Shown here: positions 4,931 through 19,979 of the stretch, piece after piece
Layout: each line of letters begins with the position of its first letter
Position numbering within the stretch: the first letter of the stretch is position 1
Notes under the pieces: generated by a model
Database searches by the model: none
What the model saw: only the letters and a program-made list of their open reading frames with translations
Told to the model about the DNA's origin: nothing
Position numbers and translations under genes: made by a program
Virus record (IMG/VR): IMGVR_UViG_2541047794_000003
Source: a virus
Taxonomy: Duplodnaviria > Heunggongvirae > Uroviricota > Caudoviricetes
DNA length: 32,443 bases
Reading direction: 5' to 3' (one strand)

Positions 4931-5097
4931 GATGGCAGCCTCCGCGATGAATTTGATTAACTCACCACCGAGGTTTTCCACGACCATAAGGGTGGTGAGA
5001 CGTACAGGGGTGGAAATACCGGTCATCACGGAACCCGGCCAGCCTTGCGGCTGCCCTGCACGCCCCACCATAATGCGAATGTGGCTGTGCTTAACGC

Positions 5098-5122
5098 ATA
5101 AAAAAACCGCCTGAGCGCGGTT
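5098..5122 (-). terminator. Rho-independent terminator (minus strand) in early-left operon
   Basis: Perfect 6-bp stem AACCGC/GCGGTT with 6-nt loop followed (on minus strand) by a U-run; lies upstream of the Rha gene. Confidence 0.5.
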
Positions 5123-5799
5123 ATGCGCCGTGAATGATTTCGGGTTTCCACGCCCGGCACCCGTTTTATGAGGTGCAGGTGCACTATAATTCCACCCGTT
5201 CTGGTTTTCAATAGCTACATTCAACATTTTCTCTCACCTTTTCAGCGGAGTGAACTTTGTGATGCAGTGCCTGGTGCCTCCAGGTGACGTTAACCAGTTA
5301 ACAATTAACGCCGGATACAGAGAATCCACCCATAACACTGTTTTTGGTTTTAACTGTTCCGCGTGCGCTGAGCCGCATTCACCGCATCACAAAATTCACT
5401 TTAAAAAGGGCGGCAGAGCAGTCACGGAGTAAAACTGATACCGCCAAACGTCACCAGAAAATTGATAACAGAGGGCGTTGCAGCGGGGTTGTCACTTAAG
5501 CGTATGGTCAACCTGACAACCCGGTGTCCTCAACGGGGGAAGGAATAACCCCGCCATACTTACCGCCGCGCCATTTCGCGGATTGCCACAACCGGAAGCG
5601 CACGGTCGACGAAAATTTAACGACAGGCTATCTATGAACCAGCTACCTCGCCGTGCGCTTTCGCGTTATGGTCTGACTTTTCAGGGAAATATCCTTTCAG
5701 TAAACTGTCAGTGCCGGATTCTTATCCGTGTCCGGCGCACGACCACACGCTGTCACGAGAGGTCTCCATTCTCAACCAGTAACCTCAATGGAGGATAAA

Positions 5800-11084: not shown

Positions 11085-11771
11085 ATGACCCCAATAAAAA
11101 TATTTATGACTATTGCTGATTTCAAACGGCCTAAATTGGAGCTCCCAAACGGGGCAAACAAACTACTACTGCACTCTTGCTGTGCTCCATGTTCCGGTGA
11201 AGTGATGGAGGCGCTTCAGGCCTCGGGAATCGACTACACCATCTTTTTCTACAACCCGAACATTCATCCTCAGAAAGAGTATTTAATTCGTAAGGATGAA
11301 AATATTCGCTTTGCTGAACAACACGGCGTGCCGTTTATCGATGCTGATTACGACACCGACAACTGGTTTGAACGTGCCAAAGGAATGGAATGGGAGCCTG
11401 AGAGGGGGATCCGTTGTACCATGTGTTTTGACATGCGTTTTGAGCGGACAGCGTTGTACGCTGCTGAAAATGGTTTCAGTGTGATCAGCAGTTCACTGGG
11501 CATTTCACGCTGGAAAAATATGCAGCAGGTTAACGAGTGTGGGCGGCGAGCTGTTGCGCATTATCCGGGTATGGTGTACTGGGATTATAACTGGCGCAAG
11601 CAGGGCGGCTCGTCCCGTATGATTGAAATCAGCAAGCGCGAAAAATTCTATCAGCAGGAATATTGTGGCTGTGTGTATTCTCTGCGCGATACCAATCTAC
11701 ACCGCAAATCTCAGGGACGCCCTCTTATCAAAATTGGCCAACTCCACTACGGAAAAGAAGAGAAGGAGTGA
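11085..11771 (+). CDS. queH: DUF208-family protein, likely epoxyqueuosine reductase QueH-like
   Basis: 228-aa ORF with [11 protein letters not shown] motif and additional conserved Cys (CTMC, CGC) typical of DUF208/QueH. Confidence 0.55.
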
Positions 11772-11879
11772 TTTTATGGATCACCTTTCTGATTGATTTC
11801 ATATTGGCGAGGTGACGTGAGTTAAGTAGAATGGCTGCGGGTGCTTGAGGCTATCTGTCTCAGGCATGAACACTGAAAG

Positions 11880-11960
11880 GCAGATAGAGAAAAGCCCCAG
11901 TTAACATTTCGCGTCCTGCAAGACGCTTAACATTAATCTGAGGCCCAATCTATGTCTCAC
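11880..11960 (-). ncRNA. Candidate Sok-like antisense RNA of the hok locus (approximate bounds)
   Basis: Minus-strand region complementary to hok leader/mok start; contains GGGGCU hairpin element analogous to Sok 3' end; candidate promoter TTGCCT-N17-TAACCT on minus strand. Confidence 0.35.
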
Positions 11961-12008
11961 AAATGTAGGTTAGCCTCTTACGTGCCGAAAGGCAAGGGGA
12001 AGCAGGCT

Positions 12009-12164
12009 ATGAAGCAGCAAAAGGCGATGTTAATCGCCCTGATCGTCATCTGTTTAACCGTCATAGTGACGGCACTGGTAACGAGGAAAGACCTCTGCGA
12101 GGTACGACTCCGAACCGGCCAGACGGAGGTCGCTGTCTTCACAGCTTACGAACCTGAGGAGTAA
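12009..12164 (+). CDS. hok: Hok/Gef-family type I toxin (small membrane peptide)
   Basis: 51-aa ORF MKQQKAMLIALIVICLTVIVTALVTRKDLCEVRLRTGQTEVAVFTAYEPEE matching Hok family pattern; leader has tac/ucb-like elements; in-frame upstream ATG at 11952 (mok-like). Confidence 0.85.
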   Translation: MKQQKAMLIALIVICLTVIVTALVTRKDLCEVRLRTGQTEVAVFTAYEPEE

Positions 12165-12605: not shown

Positions 12606-13661
12606 GTGCGGGTATTACTTCGACCTGTTCTGGTACCGGAACTCGGGCTGGTGATCGTTAAGCCGGGCCGTGAATCCATGCCGGTATTCCACAATACCCG
12701 GGTACTGGTGGAGCCGGAACCGAAAAGCATGCGTAATCTGCCGTCCGGGGTCGTTCCTGCCGTTCGCCAGCCGCTGGCGGAGGATAAATCATTACTGCCA
12801 TTTTTCAGCGACGAACGAGTGATTCGTGCTGCTGGTGGCGCTGGCGCATTGTCTGACTGGTTACTGCGCCATGTTAAATCCTGCCAGTGGCCACACGGCG
12901 ATTATCACCACAGTGAAACCGTCATTCACCGTTATGGTACCGGCGCAATGGTGTTGTGCTGGCACTGCGACAACCAGCTGCGCGACCAGACCTCCGAATC
13001 ACTCGGGCAACTTGCTCACCAAAACCTGTTTGCATGGATGATTGACGTCATACGCCATGCAATGAATGGCTCGCAGGAACGGGAATTATCGCTGGCTGAA
13101 TTATCCTGGTGGGCGGTCCGCAATCAGGTGGCGGACGCGCTACCGGAAGCGGTATTACGTCGTTCGCTGGGGTTGCGTGCGGAAAAAATCCGCTCAATGT
13201 ACCGTGAAAGCGACATCGTACCGGGAGAGCAGACCGCCACCAGCATACTGAAGCAGCGCACAAAAAATCTTGCGCCGCTGCCTCACGCCCACCAGCAAAA
13301 CCCGCCACAGGAAAAGACGGTGGTCAGCATTGCCGTTGATCCGGAGTCACCGGCTCAGTATCTCCAGCGCCAGAAATCACAACGGGAAGAGATGCCTGTA
13401 TACACGCGTTGGGTAAAAACGCAGAAATGCATGACGTGTGGCAATCAGGCAGATGATCCGCATCACATCATTGGTCATGGACTGGGAGGGATGGGAACAA
13501 AGGCTGATGATTTGTTTGTTATTCCGCTGTGCCGTAAATGCCATAGCGAACTACACGCCGGGGTAGAAGATTTTGAAGAAAAACACGGCAGCCAGCTGTT
13601 GTTGCTGATTCGTTTTTTAATGCACGCGAGAAATTCGGGTGTTTTGAAGTGGAAAGCATAA
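12606..13661 (+). CDS. DUF968-type protein with HNH-like zinc-binding motifs (YdfU-like)
   Basis: 351 aa, GTG start with GGAGG SD; C-terminal CMTCG...DPHHIIGH...CRKCHSELH HNH-like motif and an upstream Cys/His cluster. Confidence 0.65.
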   Translation: MRVLLRPVLVPELGLVIVKPGRESMPVFHNTRVLVEPEPKSMRNLPSGVVPAVRQPLAEDKSLLPFFSDERVIRAAGGAGALSDWLLRHVKSCQWPHGDYHHSETVIHRYGTGAMVLCWHCDNQLRDQTSESLGQLAHQNLFAWMIDVIRHAMNGSQERELSLAELSWWAVRNQVADALPEAVLRRSLGLRAEKIRSMYRESDIVPGEQTATSILKQRTKNLAPLPHAHQQNPPQEKTVVSIAVDPESPAQYLQRQKSQREEMPVYTRWVKTQKCMTCGNQADDPHHIIGHGLGGMGTKADDLFVIPLCRKCHSELHAGVEDFEEKHGSQLLLLIRFLMHARNSGVLKWKA

Positions 13662-14042
13662 ATGACTGAACGCATAGAATTTGTTTTGCCTTACCCGCCA
13701 ACGGTGAACACTTACTGGCGACGCCGTGGCAGCACATATTTTGTATCAAAAGCCGGGGAGCGTTATCGCCGGGCAGTGGCGCTTATTGTTCGCCAGCAGC
13801 GGCTGAAATTAAGCCTGTCCGGAAGGTTGGCAATAAAAATTATTGCAGAACCACCGGATAAGCGCCGCCGTGACCCGGACAATATTCTGAAAGCGCCGCT
13901 GGATGCGCTGACGCATGCGGGGTTGCTAATGGACGATGAGCAGTTTGATGAAATCAATATCGTTCGTGGTCAGCCAGTATCTGGTGGACGTCTGGGGGTG
14001 AAGATTTACCCCATAATGCTTGAAGGGCAGGTCAAAAAATGA
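13662..14042 (+). CDS. rusA: Holliday junction resolvase RusA
   Basis: 126 aa; LPYPPTVNTYWRRRG ... PDKRRRDPDNILKAPLDALTHAGLLMDDEQ ... GGRL matches RusA catalytic pattern. Confidence 0.85.
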   Translation: MTERIEFVLPYPPTVNTYWRRRGSTYFVSKAGERYRRAVALIVRQQRLKLSLSGRLAIKIIAEPPDKRRRDPDNILKAPLDALTHAGLLMDDEQFDEINIVRGQPVSGGRLGVKIYPIMLEGQVKK

Positions 14043-14860
14043 AACTGGAAGATTTACCGAAATACTACTCCCCAAAATCCCCCGGCCTGACCGATGCGTC
14101 CGCCTCGACATCAAAAGATGCGCTGAGTATCACTGATGTGATGGCCGCGCAGGGCATGACACAAAATCGGGCTGAGATGGGTTTTTCTGCGTTCCTTGGG
14201 AAAATGGGCATTAGTATGAATGACAGAGAGCGGGCAACAGAATTGCTGACAGAATATGCACTCAGTCGGTGTGATCGCGTGGCGGCGTTAAGAAAACTCC
14301 CGGCAGAAATAAAACCGGTAGTGATGCGCATTATGGCTTCGTACGCTTTTGAGGATTATGCCCGCAGCGCAGCGAGTAAAAAGCAGTGCCCTTGTTGCTA
14401 TGGGGAAAAATTTATTGAAAGCGTAGTTTTTACAAACAAGGTCCAGTATCCGGATGGTAAGCCGCCGGTATGGGCAAAGTGTACGAAAGGTGTGTATCCG
14501 TCTTACTGGGAAGAATGGAAAAAAGTCAGGGAGGTGGTAAAAGTTGCCTGTCCGGAGTGTGGCGGAAAGGGTGAGGTTTCCACCGCCTGTAAGGATTGCC
14601 GTGGGCGTGGTGTCGCCATTCATCGTGAAGAGTCGGTAAAACGTGGTATGCCTGTTATCAGAGACTGCCAGCGTTGTGGTGGTCGTGGCTGTGAAAGACT
14701 ACCATCAACGGAGGCATTTAATGCCATACGCAAAGTGACGAGTGCTATCACGCTTGATACGTGGAAAAAATCAGTGAAACGCTTTTACGATACGTTGGTG
14801 GTTCGGTTTGACATTGAAGAGGCATGGGCGGAGCGGCAGTTAAAGAGGGTAACGCGATAG
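14039..14860 (+). CDS. Q: Late-gene antiterminator Q (long Q-type with multiple CxxC zinc motifs)
   Basis: 273 aa with four CxxC pairs; ATGA overlap with rusA; immediately followed by a PR'-like promoter whose -10/initial transcribed region resembles lambda PR'. Confidence 0.65.
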   Translation: MKLEDLPKYYSPKSPGLTDASASTSKDALSITDVMAAQGMTQNRAEMGFSAFLGKMGISMNDRERATELLTEYALSRCDRVAALRKLPAEIKPVVMRIMASYAFEDYARSAASKKQCPCCYGEKFIESVVFTNKVQYPDGKPPVWAKCTKGVYPSYWEEWKKVREVVKVACPECGGKGEVSTACKDCRGRGVAIHREESVKRGMPVIRDCQRCGGRGCERLPSTEAFNAIRKVTSAITLDTWKKSVKRFYDTLVVRFDIEEAWAERQLKRVTR

Positions 14861-14865
14861 TGTTG

Positions 14866-14905
14866 TTGATTTTTCCCGAATCTGTGGTAAATTTGCTCTA
14901 ACGAT
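14866..14905 (+). promoter_or_regulatory. Late promoter PR' with qut-like region
   Basis: -35 TTGATT (14866-14871), 16-nt spacer, -10 TAAATT (14888-14893) followed by TGCTCTAACGATGGGCG, resembling my recollection of lambda PR' GGGTAAATTTGACTCAACGATGGG. Confidence 0.55.
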
Positions 14906-14940
14906 GGGCGTTTTATGCCTGACGTTAGAAGATTTTTTAC

Positions 14941-14966
14941 ACCCCGCCGCCTGGCGGGTTTTTTAT
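14941..14966 (+). terminator. tR'-like intrinsic terminator
   Basis: CCCGCC gcct GGCGGG hairpin followed by TTTTTT about 50 nt downstream of PR' -10. Confidence 0.55.
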
Positions 14967-15086
14967 GACTGAAATCGCGTCAGTACAGTAAACGCGCTGG
15001 TGGCGGTGAATACCTGTCTTTCAGCTTGCTGGCTTTTTCGACAAGAGTTATTGGTGTGTCACGTTAACCGGAAAAGGGAAAAAGAC

Positions 15087-15284
15087 ATGCTAAAACAGCA
15101 GGATATGACAGAAACCGCCAGAGTAGTGTTTAATGAATTAAGAGTTACCGAACCGGCGACAGTCGGGGAGATAGCGCAGAATACTTACCTTTCACGCGAA
15201 CGCTGCCAGTTAATACTGACCCAGCTGGTTATGGCGGGTCTGGCAGACTATCAGTTCGGTTGTTACAGACGCCTTCCGCAGTGA
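15087..15284 (+). CDS. Small hypothetical protein (possible winged-helix DNA-binding)
   Basis: 65 aa from ATG 15087 with AAGGGA SD; intrinsic terminator hairpin overlaps its 3' end. Confidence 0.5.
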   Translation: MLKQQDMTETARVVFNELRVTEPATVGEIAQNTYLSRERCQLILTQLVMAGLADYQFGCYRRLPQ

Positions 15285-15296
15285 AGGCTTTTTTAT
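15271..15296 (+). terminator. Intrinsic terminator
   Basis: GCCTTC cgcagt GAAGGC followed by TTTTTTATTT. Confidence 0.5.
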
Positions 15297-15434
15297 TTGT
15301 GGTAAATGGGCGGCTGGTGGGTGTTAGGGGCACCCACCAGCCATCTGCTCATGCGTTGGGTTCACAAGCAAACCTCAGGCCCACTGCTTTGCGCAAAAGC
15401 AGAATGAGCCTATCAGAGACAGGCTTAATGATCC

Positions 15435-16484
15435 ATGCTTAATACTGTAAAAATATCCAGTTGTGAGTTAATCAACGCCGACTGCCTGGAATTTATCCGG
15501 TCGTTACCCGAAAATTCTGTTGACCTGATAGTCACGGACCCGCCGTACTTTAAAGTGAAGCCTGAGGGCTGGGATAACCAGTGGAAGGGCGACGATGATT
15601 ACCTGAAGTGGCTGGACCAGTGTCTGGCGCAGTTCTGGCGGGTGCTGAAACCTGCCGGAAGTCTTTACCTGTTCTGTGGTCATCGCCTGGCATCTGATAT
15701 CGAAATCATGATGCGTGAACGCTTCAGTGTGCTGAACCATATTATCTGGGCGAAGCCGTCCGGACGCTGGAACGGATGCAACAAGGAAAGCCTGCGGGCG
15801 TATTTCCCCGCCACAGAGCGCATTCTGTTCGCGGAACATTATCAGGGGCCGTATCGTCCGAAAGATGCCGGGTATGCGGTGAAGGGCAGTGCACTGAAAC
15901 AGCATGTGATGGCCCCGCTGATTTCTTACTTTCGTGATGCGCGCGCGGCCCTGGGGATAACGGCAAAACAGATTGCAGATGCCACAGGAAAGAAAAACAT
16001 GGTGTCGCACTGGTTCAGTGCCAGTCAGTGGCAGCTACCGAACGAAAGCGATTATCTGAAATTACAGTCGCTGTTTGCCCGGGTGGCAGAAGAGAAACAT
16101 CAGCGCGGTGAACTGGAAAAGCCCCACCACCAGCTGGTGGATACGTATACGTCACTGAACCGGCAGTATGTGGAGCTGCAGAGTGAATATAAGCATCTGC
16201 GGCGGTATTTTGGTGTGACGGCGCAGGTGCCGTACACGGATGTGTGGACACATAAACCGGTGCAGTTCTATCCCGGGAAACATCCGTGCGAAAAACCGGC
16301 AGAAATGCTGCAGCAGATAATCAGCGCAAGTAGCCGTCCTGGTGATCTGGTTGCGGATTTTTTCATGGGGTCGGGTTCAACGGTAAAAGCGGCGATGGCA
16401 CTGGGGCGTCGTGCGATTGGTGTTGAGCTGGAGACCGGACGTTTTGAGCAGACAGTCAGGGAAGTTCAGGATTTAATCGTTTGA
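15435..16484 (+). CDS. Orphan DNA methyltransferase, probably N6-adenine (beta-class motif order)
   Basis: 349 aa; TDPPY motif IV near N-terminus and FFMGSGST motif I near C-terminus; no adjacent restriction gene. Confidence 0.8.
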   Translation: MLNTVKISSCELINADCLEFIRSLPENSVDLIVTDPPYFKVKPEGWDNQWKGDDDYLKWLDQCLAQFWRVLKPAGSLYLFCGHRLASDIEIMMRERFSVLNHIIWAKPSGRWNGCNKESLRAYFPATERILFAEHYQGPYRPKDAGYAVKGSALKQHVMAPLISYFRDARAALGITAKQIADATGKKNMVSHWFSASQWQLPNESDYLKLQSLFARVAEEKHQRGELEKPHHQLVDTYTSLNRQYVELQSEYKHLRRYFGVTAQVPYTDVWTHKPVQFYPGKHPCEKPAEMLQQIISASSRPGDLVADFFMGSGSTVKAAMALGRRAIGVELETGRFEQTVREVQDLIV

Positions 16485-16533
16485 AACGGATGAGATTGCA
16501 GAATTAATTACGCACCATTATTATTCTGCTCCC

Positions 16534-16609
16534 GGCCCTTTAGCTCAGTGGTGAGAGCGAGCGACTCATAATCGCCAGGTCGCTGGTTCAAATCCAGCAA
16601 GGGCCACCA
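16534..16609 (+). tRNA. ileZ: tRNA-Ile (anticodon CAT, lysidine type; ileZ-like)
   Basis: 76-nt cloverleaf GGCCCTT...AAGGGCC-A-CCA; anticodon loop CTCATAA; near-identical architecture to E. coli tRNA-Ile2. Confidence 0.8.
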
Positions 16610-16616
16610 TCACATA

Positions 16617-16693
16617 CCGCCATTAGCTCATCAGGAAAGAGCGCCAGCCTTCGAAGCTGGTTGCGCGGAGTTCGGGTCCCCGAAGGCGGTCCA
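16617..16693 (+). tRNA. tRNA-Arg (anticodon TCG as read), atypical
   Basis: Cloverleaf with anticodon stem CCAGC/GCTGG and loop CTTCGAA; one mismatch in acceptor stem (A6:A67) and one in T-stem, T-loop TTCGGGT; ends CCA. Confidence 0.55.
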
Positions 16694-16706
16694 TTATCTG
16701 TATCCT

Positions 16707-16783
16707 GCGTTGTTAGCTCAGCCGGACAGAGCAATTGCCTTCTAAGCAATCGGTCACTGGTTCGAATCCAGTACAACGCGCCA
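16707..16783 (+). tRNA. argO: tRNA-Arg (anticodon TCT, reads AGA)
   Basis: Perfect acceptor stem GCGTTGT/ACAACGC, anticodon loop CTTCTAA, T-loop TTCGAAT, discriminator G, CCA. Confidence 0.8.
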
Positions 16784-16829
16784 CACTTATTTTCCCTGGC
16801 TCGCTTTTGTGGGCCTTTTTTTTAAATGT

Positions 16830-17045
16830 CTCACAATTTAGGCGGTTGACTGTTGTCTGGTTTGCGGGGAGTTTGTTAAAAGAAACTGGCATGGTGAATC
16901 CCCCTGTGCGGAGGGGCAATCAGCGAGTAGGTATATGGGATAATCGCGGATTCAGGTGCTGGTACTGAATTCACCGGGAGGCACCCGGCACCATGCAATG
17001 GCACATAGCGCCACTCTCCAGCCCCTCTCCGGAGGGGCTTTTCTG
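16830..17045 (+). repeat. Module A of tandem structured non-coding element (conserved arms GCATGGTG.../...CACCATGC, internal hairpins, terminator)
   Basis: CTCACAATT + TTGACT motif, conserved arm gcatggtgaatccccctgtgcggaggggc (16889-), arm ctgaattcaccgggaggcacccggcaccatgc (-16996), terminator CCCCTC tccg GAGGGG + T-run (17022-17045). Confidence 0.5.
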
Positions 17046-17297
17046 TGCCGGATACATCACAGTTTCTGGAACCTTAGGTACTACAGTATCAGTCAGGGTG
17101 CTATATTTTCAGATGTGATGAAAGCCTGTCAGCAGGCAGGGCGTATCGGAAATGACCCAGTAGAGAAAACGTTGACTCAGATACCGGTGCTGAGTTACCG
17201 GGAAACCGGCATCACATGACCGCTATCCTTCCAGGCCCATCCGCTCCGGTGGGCCTTTTTACTGCAGAAAACAGGTTCCCCGTTAAATGCTATGTTG

Positions 17298-17532
17298 CTC
17301 ACAATTCAGTAAGTTGACAGTTGCCTGTCAGACTGGGCATTTGTTAAAAAAATTTCGCATGGTGAATCCCCCTGAGCGGAGGGGCGACTGGTGACGGTAT
17401 AATCTCTGATTATCAAAACGAGAATGACGCGGGTTTAGTGGCACCGGGCTGAACTCACCGGGAGGCACCCGGCACCATGTGCATGATGATACAGATACGC
17501 GGCTTTAGCCCCTCTCCGGAGGGGTTTTCTTG
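17298..17532 (+). repeat. Module B, second copy of the same structured element with divergent core
   Basis: Same conserved arms (17357-17479) and same terminator (17507-17532); central ~60 nt unrelated to module A; preceded by terminator GGCCCA...TGGGCC+TTTTT (17234-17261). Confidence 0.5.
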
Positions 17533-17759
17533 TGGGCAAAAAAAGCCCGCGCTGGGAGACGCGGGCGGCAAGGAATAAACAATAAAACGTGAAGTAATAT
17601 TTCAGCTGGCGAATAATACCCCATAGTAATCACTCTGCGCAACTGCGCGGTCTTTTTCGAATTGCGGGCTGTCGTCTCTCTTCTGCCATTGTCCTGTAAC
17701 TTCCGGACTTCAGCCCGCTCCTTATTTTACTCACAATATTATCCCGGCCGGGAGGATTC

Positions 17760-19613
17760 ATGGCATTTAAACACTATGACGTGGTCAGGGCGGTATCGCC
17801 GTCAGACCTTGCGAAACGACTGACACAAAAACTGAAGGAGGGCTGGCAGCCGTTTGGTAGTCCGGTGGCCATAACCCCTTATACCCTGATGCAGGCGATT
17901 GCAGCAGAAGGTGATGTGGTGGTCAGTGGTGCAACTGAGCCGGATTGGTACTACGTCATCGTACTGGCCGGGCAGTCCAATGCCATGGCTTACGGTGAAG
18001 GGCTTCCGCTGCCGGATTCATACGATGCGCCCCATCCGCGCATTAAGCAACTGGCCCGTCGTAACACAGTGACTCCCGGTGGTGAAGTATGCGTATTTAA
18101 CGACATCATTCCTGCTGACCATTGTCTGCATGATGTTCAAGATATGAGTACGATTAACCATCCCCGGGCTGACCTGAGCAAAGGGCAGTACGGCTGTGTC
18201 GGACAGGGCTTACATATTGCCAAAAAACTGCTTCCGTATATCCCTAATAACGCGGGGATCCTGCTGGTACCATGCTGTCGTGGTGGTTCGGCATTCACCC
18301 AGGGCACGGAGGGGACATTCAGCGAGTCCACGGGGGCCAGTCAGGATTCGGCTCGCTGGGGAGTGGGTAAGCCGTTATATCAGGATCTGCTTTTCCGCAC
18401 GAAGGCAGCATTGCAGAAAAACCCGAAAAACGTTTTGCTGGCGATATGCTGGATGCAGGGGGAATTCGATATGACGAATGCCAGTTACGCCCAGCAGCCA
18501 GCAGCATTTCTTGCAATGGTACAGCAGTTCCGTGCTGACCTTGCCGGGCTGGCGGCGCAGTGTCACGGTGGAAGTCCGGCATCAGTCCCCTGGATTTGTG
18601 GCGACACGACATACGCGTGGAAACAAGAACACGGTACGCAATATGAAGTGGTATATGGTGCATATAAAGGTAAAGAATCCCAGCAGATTTATTTTGTTCC
18701 CTTTATGACCGATGGTAGCGGAGTTAATACACCGACAAACAACCCGTCAGAAGATCCTGATATTGCCGGGTCTGGTTATTACGGTTCGGCATCCCGAACG
18801 AACAAAAACTGGGTATCATCAAATCGCCCGACGCATTTCAGCTCATGGGCGCGTCGTGGCATTATTCCCGATCGTATGGCAACTGCTATTCTGAACGTAG
18901 CCGGTCGCACCTTAGCCTTCATTAGTGGTAAGGCACCGGAAATCAAACCCTCGCCCGGCGGCGACACGCCATCGGGGCCGTCTGAAGATGCATCCGTACG
19001 CACAATCTCCCTGTTGCCGACAGCCGGAGATGCTGCTGCGCAGGGCTGGAGCATTAAGAATGGCGGAATTCAGTTGTCAGAGGGTGTATTTAAGATCACC
19101 AAGCAGAGCAATAAAACCTGGTACCTGATGCATCCGGTGGATGACGCAATTACCCTGCTGACACAGGGCGGCAGACTGACCTGTAAGTTCCGCCTCTCAG
19201 GCGCACTGACCAACAATCAGTTCGGGCTGGGGATTTATCTGTATACGGACGCTCCCGTTCCTGATGATGTGGCGATGACGGGTACTGGTAATCCGTTCCT
19301 GATGTCTTACTTCACTCAGACCACTGACGGCAGAGTGAATCTGATGCATCACAGGAAAGCCGGAAACACGAAGCTGGGGGAGTTTGGCGATTACGGTAAC
19401 GACTGGCAGACGCTGGAGCTGGTGTTCACCGCCGGCAGTGCCACGGTTACTCCGAAACTGAATGGAGTGGCTGGCCCGGCATTCCAGGTCATAAAAGACA
19501 GTCTGACACTGGGGCTGAATGCGCTGACGCTGACGGATGTTACAAAAAATGCAGCGTATGGCGTTGAGATAGAAAGTCTGGTGCTGGAGATAAATGCACC
19601 GGCATCATCATAA
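17760..19613 (+). CDS. Prophage sialate O-acetylesterase (NanS-p type): N-terminal DUF1737 plus SGNH/SASA esterase domain
   Basis: 617 aa; GGGAGG SD; GQSNAMAYGEG esterase motif; sits downstream of the tRNA cluster as in Stx-phage late regions. Confidence 0.75.
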   Translation: MAFKHYDVVRAVSPSDLAKRLTQKLKEGWQPFGSPVAITPYTLMQAIAAEGDVVVSGATEPDWYYVIVLAGQSNAMAYGEGLPLPDSYDAPHPRIKQLARRNTVTPGGEVCVFNDIIPADHCLHDVQDMSTINHPRADLSKGQYGCVGQGLHIAKKLLPYIPNNAGILLVPCCRGGSAFTQGTEGTFSESTGASQDSARWGVGKPLYQDLLFRTKAALQKNPKNVLLAICWMQGEFDMTNASYAQQPAAFLAMVQQFRADLAGLAAQCHGGSPASVPWICGDTTYAWKQEHGTQYEVVYGAYKGKESQQIYFVPFMTDGSGVNTPTNNPSEDPDIAGSGYYGSASRTNKNWVSSNRPTHFSSWARRGIIPDRMATAILNVAGRTLAFISGKAPEIKPSPGGDTPSGPSEDASVRTISLLPTAGDAAAQGWSIKNGGIQLSEGVFKITKQSNKTWYLMHPVDDAITLLTQGGRLTCKFRLSGALTNNQFGLGIYLYTDAPVPDDVAMTGTGNPFLMSYFTQTTDGRVNLMHHRKAGNTKLGEFGDYGNDWQTLELVFTAGSATVTPKLNGVAGPAFQVIKDSLTLGLNALTLTDVTKNAAYGVEIESLVLEINAPASS

Positions 19614-19698
19614 AAAGTGAGCCAGCCAAATGGAAGGTATCGTTAAACTCACCGGTAGTGTCAGTGGGTCGTCTGAGATGCCTGCATGAGTTATCAGA

Positions 19699-19729
19699 GC
19701 CATCAGTACTTAACTGGTGGCTTTTTTTA
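19699..19729 (+). terminator. Hairpin plus T-run between esterase gene and holin
   Basis: GCCATCAG tacttaa CTGGTGGC (one G-U) followed by TTTTTTT. Confidence 0.35.
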
Positions 19730-19763
19730 TTGTTGTCAGCTTCCGGATAACGGGAGACGGGGT

Positions 19764-19979
19764 ATGTACCAGATGGAAAAAATCACAACAGGTGTGTCAT
19801 ACACCACGTCAGCGGTGGGAACGGGCTACTGGTTCCTGCAGTTGCTGGACAGGGTTTCCCCGTCTCAGTGGGCGGCAATAGGCGTGCTGGGGAGTCTGCT
19901 GTTTGGGCTGCTGACATATCTGACTAACCTGTATTTCAAAATCAGAGAGGACCGTCGTAAGGCTGCACGGGGAGAGTAA
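19764..19979 (+). CDS. S: Holin (phage 21 S-type, class II) with dual-start motif
   Basis: 71 aa [26 protein letters not shown]... two TM segments, basic C-terminus; GGAGA SD; track ORF start 19686 is an upstream extension. Confidence 0.8.

Follow-up and report, generated by a model that had tools for sequence, protein, structure and literature searches.

Organization of the region downstream of Q

Our study concerns a 32,443-nucleotide stretch of viral DNA (Caudoviricetes; IMG/VR record IMGVR_UViG_2541047794_000003), here called the window, and within it the segment that directly follows a gene for a Q antiterminator and appears to hold a late promoter of the PR' type, a promoter-proximal pause site and an intrinsic terminator equivalent to tR' (Table 1). 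The -35 hexamer of the promoter begins five bases past the TAG stop codon of Q. The initial annotation had read the two hexamers as TTGATT and TAAATT with 16 nt between them; both are present as described, and a TG dinucleotide completes an extended -10 element. The same annotation had proposed a likeness to the initial transcribed region of lambda PR', and alignment with the lambda record bears this out: TGCTCTAACGATGGGCG (14894-14910) in the window and TGACTCAACGATGGGTT in lambda are identical at 13 of 17 positions, and the nine bases AACGATGGG contained in them are identical throughout. In full, lambda PR' (NC_001416) reads TTGACT-17-TAAATT-TGACTC-AACGATGGGTT, and the window continues after TGCTCT as AACGATGGGCG. 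Both thus have the same -10 hexamer, an equal distance of 6 nt and the same AACGATGGG, and the combination TAAATT-N6-AACGATGGG has one exact match in the window, with about 0.1 expected by chance even if two mismatches are allowed. By counting, the lambda +1 falls at position 44587 of its record, which we also take to be the start of the lambda 6S RNA; the equivalent base in the window is A14900, and on this alignment we place the putative start of transcription there.

Table 1. Features of the late control region and its surroundings. Divergence is from the window, across 81 close relatives in an ungapped alignment.
Feature	Position	Strand	Description	Divergence
Q antiterminator gene	14039-14860	+	273 aa, Q-lambda family, long form; ends with TAG	2.3% (codon positions 1 and 2); 12.9% (third codon positions)
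Gap from Q stop to -35				20.7%
PR' -35 hexamer TTGATT	14866-14871	+	aligns with TTGACT of lambda and P22	0%
16-nt spacer TTTCCCGAATCTGTGG	14872-14887	+	candidate Q-binding element; TG of extended -10 at 14885-14886 (-15/-14)	1.2%
PR' -10 hexamer TAAATT	14888-14893	+	same as lambda and P22 PR' -10	0.6%
Discriminator TGCTCT	14894-14899	+	free to vary	16.0%
Putative start A14900 and sigma-dependent pause element AACGAT plus GGG (AACGATGGG)	14900-14908	+	identical to lambda +1..+9	1.9%
5'-terminal RNA hairpin	14900-14926	+	AACG 14900-14903 with CGUU 14923-14926; inner helix 14906-14911 with 14915-14920 in the minimum free energy (MFE) structure	
Transcript positions +10..+27				0.9%
TATG	14914-14917	+	+15..+18; fits TNYG scrunched-pause consensus; predicted pause ~+17/+18	
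A/U-rich single-stranded linker AGAAGAUUUUUUACAC	14927-14942	+	unpaired in MFE structure	5.6%
Terminator tR', CCCGCC-GCCT-GGCGGG plus T6	14943-14964	+	intrinsic terminator; 6-bp all-GC stem, 4-nt loop	16.5% (stem-loop, changes in loop); 0.8% (T tract)
Mosaic junction after T tract	14965-14970		mEp460 and Evi match the window only to ~14966, Stx2 or SfV-type phages only from ~14943	
65-aa open reading frame (ORF)	15087-15294	+	weak TrmB-like hit only, E 0.003; annotated hypothetical in SfV, Stx2 phages and RefSeq	
Second terminator-like hairpin with T run	15271-15288	+		
Cargo and first lysis genes	15435-19979	+	DNA methylase, three tRNAs, two STnc100 copies, sialate-esterase-like protein, holin	

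The strong terminator that had been placed about 50 nt downstream is also present, with a hairpin energy of -11.9 kcal/mol and a stem that is kept in relatives while its loop varies. The stem starts 43 nt past the putative start, and the predicted RNA is therefore about 65 nt long, not about 50 nt, so that the earlier expectation of a 50-60-nt RNA has to be revised upward. The MFE fold of the 66-nt RNA (-21.9 kcal/mol, z -2.8) consists of a 5' hairpin, the linker and the terminator hairpin. An Rfam search over 14861-14966 found no family at the gathering threshold, only chance-level overlaps at E >=0.63 in a search carried to E 10, and no paper was matched when full texts were searched for the precise leader and promoter sequences. 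Another terminator-like hit at 14894-14910 (TGCTC...GGGCG plus TTTT) was rejected because it straddles the start site, so that its weak stem cannot form in a PR' transcript; a 17-codon mini-ORF from the ATG at 14916 is ruled out by a 1-nt indel in its T run among relatives.

In lambda the sigma-dependent pause element (SDPE) lies at +1..+6 and the pause at +16/+17, where the scrunched state prefers the motif T+14 N Y+16 G+17 (bioRxiv 10.1101/2022.01.24.477500). The element AACGAT plus GGG stands at the same distance from the -10 hexamer in the window as in lambda, and the TATG at +15..+18 predicts a pause one base later than in lambda. Across the 77 unique leaders of the wider family described below, the TNYG motif takes position +17 in 22, as in the window, and its Y falls at +14 to +17 in 49 of the 77 occurrences counted.

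The Q protein

Membership of the Q protein in a known antiterminator family is central to any reading of this region, and the initial annotation had named an unrelated Q family as grounds for abandoning its proposal. Three families of Q proteins are named in the paper on the Q-lambda structure, of which PF03589 is Q-lambda (PMC9388147). The 273-aa ORF matches PF03589 at E 8.5e-51 in a Pfam search that gave no match to PF06530 or PF06323 and, as its sole other hit, DnaJ_CXXCXGXG below that model's cut-off. It aligns with lambda Q from first to last residue at 30% identity, and with the Q-lambda chains of PDB 7ubm at E 3.4e-39, the first 113 residues running free of gaps against chain 7ubm_Q. 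The protein thus belongs to the Q-lambda family, and an unrelated one is excluded. The N-terminal nozzle segment and the zinc-ribbon ligands are kept in the sequence alignment; the four zinc-ligand cysteines (C184, C187, C210 and C213) are invariant, together with G39, L268 and T272, in all nine Q proteins aligned (alignment A1).

The ORF departs from the lambda protein by an insertion of about 68 aa, residues 114-181 (window 14378-14581), which contains extra CxxC motifs and lies directly before the zinc-ribbon arm. This long form is common to phi80, SfV, HK225, mEp237 and phiEt88 and is absent from lambda and P22. The insertion may be a second zinc ribbon that alters the geometry of DNA recognition; the spacer of the window has 16 nt, where that of lambda has 17.

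Comparison with lambda, phi80 and P22

Position by position, the promoter, pause element and terminator of the window correspond to those of lambda, and also of P22 and phi80. Lambda has in common with the window a PF03589 Q with its nozzle segment and zinc ligands, the TAAATT hexamer, a 6-nt discriminator, AACGATGGG at +1..+9, a TNYG pause motif, an intrinsic terminator and late genes downstream. The differences are in the length of Q (273 aa against 207 in lambda), in the spacer (16 nt, TTTCCCGAATCTGTGG, against the unrelated 17-nt sequence TATTGAATAAAATTGGG), in the -35 hexamer (TTGATT against TTGACT), in the TG extension of the -10 element found here, and in the distance from the Q stop codon to the -35 hexamer, which is 5 nt here and 42 nt in lambda. 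The predicted PR' RNA is also much shorter than that of lambda, whose 6S RNA we take to be 194 nt long. Termination in lambda is reported at +193 (PMC4914094). The two complementary arms of the lambda leader are AACGA at +1..+5 and UCGUU at +19..+23.

Another of the closest described systems is phi80, whose gp17 is a long-form Q with the same insertion and 41% identity. Its record (NC_021190) annotates PR' with a Q site placed between the two hexamers, and a terminator that ends, by counting, about 75 nt past the start; an SDPE-like AACGCT plus GGG is present, and its 5' arm AACG pairs with a downstream CGTT. It differs in having a 17-nt spacer, TTCGCGGAAAAACTGGA, a 7-nt discriminator and another C-terminal helix in Q. 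In P22, the record annotates a promoter P-late, a qut-like site, a probable 5' end and a terminator t-late ending about 59 nt downstream, so that the RNA is similarly short, and AACGA likewise pairs with UCGUU; gene 23 differs from the Q of the window in being a short form, nearly identical to lambda Q, with a lambda-type spacer.

Constraint across the family and covariation of the spacer with Q

We compared the window with 80 close relatives drawn from IMG/VR and with 80 diverse loci, one genome per species, nearly all of which are from Enterobacterales, a few record titles naming other taxa; the genera include Klebsiella, Enterobacter, Kluyvera, Serratia, Xenorhabdus, Proteus, Morganella, Yersinia, Pectobacterium and Edwardsiella. 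The layout of -35, spacer, -10, 5-7 nt and AAYRMT plus GGG could be located in 157 loci, which reduce to 77 unique leaders. Of 103 unique leaders, 92 have a terminator no more than 110 nt downstream. The predicted RNAs have a median length of 65 nt, equal to that of the window, from which lambda stands apart with about 194 nt. The same order of elements 3' of Q is found in lambda, P22, phi80, SfV, HK225, mEp237, mEp460 and phiEt88.

Divergence among the close relatives is distributed unevenly over the segment (Table 1). The discriminator, of which TGCCCT, CGTCAT, CGCACT and CACCCT are variants, is free to change, and the linker is under only moderate constraint, as judged from its divergence. 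In the wider clade with this type of spacer, the spacer holds 1.76 bits of information per position, equal to the hexamers, and the discriminator 0.92; the spacer of an ordinary sigma-70 promoter is not expected to show such conservation. The Q-binding element of lambda lies between the -35 and -10 hexamers (PMC9388147), and such an element in the stretch CCCGAATCTG would explain the conservation of the spacer here.

The spacer also varies together with Q, as a Q-binding element would be expected to do. Spacers of the form TTTCC(C/G)GAA occur with the Q motif W(K/E)K(S/T/N)VK in 23 of the 23 cases that have a motif, and spacers of the form GGCG(G/A)A with WRR(N/S)(F/Y/L)K in 12 of 12; the lambda-like spacer TGAATAA occurs with WSRTVK. 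The motif that tracks the class of spacer lies in the C-terminal helix region of Q, at residues ~240-250 (loci L083-L169), and the pairing of spacer class with helix motif is a possible recognition code of the Q-lambda-type proteins.

A covarying hairpin at the 5' terminus

The first four bases of the predicted transcript show slight variation between lineages because they are part of the pause element, and in the window they enclose, by pairing of AACG with CGUU, an inner helix of GGGCGU with AUGCCU. The partner of these first 4-5 nt lies at about +20..+27, and the two arms vary together across the family. Among leaders that start with AACG, CGTT is found at +13..+34 in 51 of 54; all eight leaders that start with AACA have TGTT, which occurs in only 5 of the 54 AACG leaders; and of the 11 that start with AATG, five have CATT and four have CGTT, which still pairs through U-G. 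The complement of a leader's own first four bases is present in 64 of the 77, where permutation gave a mean of 42.8 and reached 64 in none of 10,000 trials. These statistics are to be read with the relatedness of the sequences in mind; by our reading, the compensatory classes are spread over at least six types of leader and are therefore not the product of one inherited event.

A plain MAFFT alignment of the leaders (A2) came out ungapped, with the 3' arms out of register, and was replaced by an N-padded alignment (A3) anchored on the first YRTT after +17, a rule that is blind to the variable 5' bases. As this rule fixes pairs 1 and 2 and limits pairs 3 and 4 to a pyrimidine and a purine, the free tests are the choice of base in pairs 3 and 4, and pair 5. 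Pair 3 is CG in 44 leaders, UG in 5, UA in 4 and unpaired in 3, and pair 4 is GC in 41, AU in 7, GU in 7 and unpaired in 1; 12 cells show a change on both sides, where shuffling gives 3.9 (0/500). Pairing in this alignment is 85% and falls to 26-39% when the partner is slid by 1-3 columns in the 5' direction or 1-2 columns in the 3' direction, while a slide of +3 gives 91%, counting only two pairs. In MFE folds of +1..+34, at least four of the first five bases are paired in 49 of 76 leaders, compared with 13% of shuffles. The covarying pairs seen in the family are AACG/CGUU, AAUG/CAUU, AACA/UGUU and AACGG/CCGUU.

We found no description of this hairpin in the literature examined on Q-lambda, sigma-dependent pausing, NusA and StxS, a body of work that does not extend to the older studies of the Roberts laboratory. 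Stem-loops at the 5' terminus of an RNA protect it against decay that depends on the 5' end, and by analogy it is plausible that the hairpin shields both the late mRNA and the short RNA in this way; equally plausible is a role as a folded stopper outside the nozzle formed by Q, which would block the RNA from slipping back. We tentatively suggest, with somewhat less than even confidence, that the hairpin is a functional and previously unlisted part of Q-lambda-type cassettes and that the RNA of about 65 nt could be a regulator in lysogens of the kind represented by StxS.

A longer inverted repeat of 20 nt (14884-14903 with 14923-14942, 70% complementary) would extend the dyad of the leader into the -10 hexamer and the discriminator. 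We treat it as probably due to chance, because a PR' transcript would not include its upstream arm and changes in the discriminator are not matched by compensating ones; for its arms to pair, a transcript would have to enter from farther upstream.

Nature of the locus and alternative explanations

Taken together, these data make it very probable that positions 14866-14964 form a Q-lambda-type cassette, of the long-Q subgroup, for the control of late genes in a lambdoid prophage. As far as its sequence can tell, the cassette carries the features by which the Q-lambda type is defined at that level (PMC9388147), with the spacer as a candidate for the Q-binding element. Several points weigh against this assignment. 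Only 8 of the 12 hexamer positions agree with the consensus, the spacer has a length of 16 nt, and a generic promoter scan of 13500-16500 reported nothing. The cut-off of that scan was 9 of 12 hexamer positions, and lambda PR', with the same -10 hexamer, scores 9; the site scores below the cut-off, and the empty scan is hence not taken as absence of a promoter. The weakness of the hexamers may be offset by the conserved TG of the extended -10. An element like the TTGACT found in lambda just upstream of the pause element is not kept, the window having TTGCTC at a place that varies in relatives, and the TNYG motif is 1 nt off relative to lambda. The insertion in Q lies beside the zinc arm that contacts DNA, so that this protein may recognize DNA in a geometry other than that of lambda Q. 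Finally, the start site, the pause, the binding of Q and antitermination with read-through are all deduced from the sequence.

The weak hexamers missed by the consensus scan, and the mere 5 nt that separate the Q stop codon from the -35, would also suit a simpler explanation in which the hairpin and T tract merely close the early-right operon behind Q and the likeness to a promoter has no function. We regard this as extremely improbable: the placement of AACGATGGG exactly 6 nt after TAAATT, as in lambda, is hardly to be had by chance at the expected frequency given above; the -35, spacer, -10 and SDPE are about ten times more conserved than synonymous sites, and the segments between them are not; and the layout is found again in about 150 loci whose Q genes have diverged. 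The conservation also bears on the idea that the cassette is intact but no longer used, lying in a cryptic prophage and persisting through recent descent or through selection on cargo genes. Many lambdoid prophages of E. coli are defective, one genome that is identical in other respects has a frameshift in the downstream methylase, and the window ends before the tail genes, so that completeness cannot be judged from it. Functional elements nevertheless diverge by 0-2% where neutral proxies reach 13-21%, which shows that purifying selection is still at work in the clade; records submitted as phage genomes contain close relatives of the Q-PR'-tR' segment (mEp460, Evi, vB_EcoS phages and Stx2_EH1910), and genes from integrase through major capsid protein are present. 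Disuse is, on this evidence, quite improbable.

More weight attaches to the possibility that the terminated RNA of about 65 nt is itself functional, acting besides the switch as an Hfq-binding, trans-acting small RNA (sRNA) made constitutively in lysogens. The precedent is StxS, a 74-nt Hfq-binding sRNA cut by RNase E from a 258-nt transcript of the PR' of an Stx phage; in that case a by-product of PR' and tR' acts as a regulator, and its authors propose the same for other antiterminated promoters (PMC7547250). As with StxS, a short RNA from a constitutively active PR', ended at tR' in lysogeny, is predicted from the present sequence, but the RNA has no Rfam match, even in the search to E 10, and its likeness to StxS is in the way it would be made. 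The predicted fold, in which a 5' hairpin and an A/U-rich linker (AGAAGAUUUUUU) precede a GC-rich terminator with a U6 tail, would suit an sRNA, as would the low divergence of +10..+27 and of the linker relative to the neutral proxies and the presence of the surrounding 401-bp segment, at >=80% coverage, in 1424 of 5426 complete E. coli genomes. Across the wider family, however, the loop and linker are unconserved (0.6 bits per position over +10..+30) and several types of leader have been swapped between types of Q, which fits a structural role in cis better than a conserved seed, and the pause site and the hairpin can by themselves account for the constraint on +10..+27. We therefore consider a trans-acting role unlikely, though the least so of these alternatives.

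Proposed model of late-gene control

With the locus read as a late regulatory cassette, a model for its activity can be proposed along the lines of lambda. Host RNA polymerase with sigma-70 would start at PR' (TTGATT-16-TG-TAAATT), most likely at A14900, after which sigma region 2 is expected to recapture the -10-like AACGAT at +1..+6 on the non-template strand and to hold the polymerase in a scrunched pause at about +17/+18, at TATG. Without Q, the polymerase would escape and stop at tR', releasing the RNA of about 65 nt. In its presence, the 273-aa Q would bind the conserved spacer between the -35 and -10 hexamers, load on the paused complex and form a nozzle at the RNA exit as in Q-lambda; the modified polymerase would then pass tR' and later terminators and transcribe the methylase, tRNA, esterase, lysis and morphogenesis genes.

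The arrangement of the genes agrees with such a scheme. Lysozyme, terminase, portal and capsid genes also lie 3' of the cassette on the + strand, and since everything from the methyltransferase to the capsid genes follows PR' on one strand, Q-dependent late control of the methyltransferase, tRNAs, STnc100 copies, esterase, lysis, terminase and capsid genes is the natural reading, as had been envisaged at the outset for the genes up to lysis. Several more terminator-like sites are present on the + strand between PR' and the holin gene, which fits a need for processive antitermination.

The cassette would then be an ordinary lambda-type late switch that had not been individually characterized before, to which the hairpin and the pairing of spacer with Q are modest additions. 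Its practical value is in annotation: it is widespread in E. coli and yet is without annotation in RefSeq NZ_CP024886 and in phage mEp460_ev081, and by its position upstream of stx2AB the same cassette would control toxin genes in one Stx2a phage or more. Its predicted start and pause site, together with the terminator and the spacer as candidate for Q binding, are targets for studying Q-type control of late-gene and toxin expression. The spacer classes that track the helix motif of Q offer a testable natural specificity code for Q-lambda-type proteins, and a role of the covarying hairpin in RNA stability or in locking the Q nozzle is also testable.

Distribution, mosaic joints and neighboring genes

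Matches to the window are found in E. coli AR_0017, where they belong to an apparently complete prophage located next to ompW, and in many other strains. In AR_0017 the prophage carries integrase, DicB, replication genes, DUF968, RusA and Q before the late genes, and after Q, on one strand, genes for a methylase, three tRNAs, an esterase-like protein, holin, lysozyme, an Rz-like protein, terminase, portal and capsid; over the 401 bp of 14700-15100 it is 100% identical to the window. The same 401-bp query has matches in 2358 of the 5426 complete E. coli genomes. In the Stx2a phage Stx2_EH1910 the hexamers, spacer and pause element are the same and base changes occur only in the discriminator and the terminator hairpin; there the cassette precedes a methylase, tRNAs and stx2AB.

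The terminator marks a mosaic joint, and the modules on its two sides occur with other partners in other phages. Q, PR' and tR' are common to the window and to phages mEp460 and Evi, which diverge from it right after the T tract, while SfV-like and many Stx2 phages share the sequence from the terminator onward, including the 65-aa ORF and the methylase, and have other Q genes. In the 80 close relatives the T tract gives way to at least five different sequences, and leader types have been exchanged between promoter types; with these mosaic partners and swapped leaders, the conserved pause element and terminator look like recombination joints.

Some further observations concern the genes on either side. 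The DNA methylase ORF (15435-16484, 349 aa) is intact in the window and is annotated as frameshifted in the AR_0017 prophage. Between the 65-aa ORF and the methylase gene lies a perfect 12-bp inverted repeat (15312-15342, GGCTGGTGGGTG and CACCCACCAGCC with a 7-nt loop), to which a sub-threshold P26 hit at 15311-15375 is due, rather than to the Pseudomonas sRNA of that name. The tRNA with a CAT anticodon at 16534-16609 is called Met by ARAGORN and tRNA-Ile in RefSeq, and the trio to which it belongs is the tRNA set found upstream of stx2AB in Stx2_EH1910. The two STnc100 copies (16860-17050 and 17328-17537, 136 and 161 bits) are located between the tRNAs and the esterase, at the site that stx2AB occupies in Stx2_EH1910. 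Upstream of Q, strong Rfam matches to C4 antisense RNA, isrK, DicF and sok at 4988-5459 (- strand) and 11839-12014 indicate an immunity and early region rich in small RNAs. An epoxyqueuosine reductase gene, queH (11085-11771, Pfam E 1e-65, with the same assignment in RefSeq), adjoins the hok/sok module, a position that suggests a prophage cargo gene related to tRNA modification.

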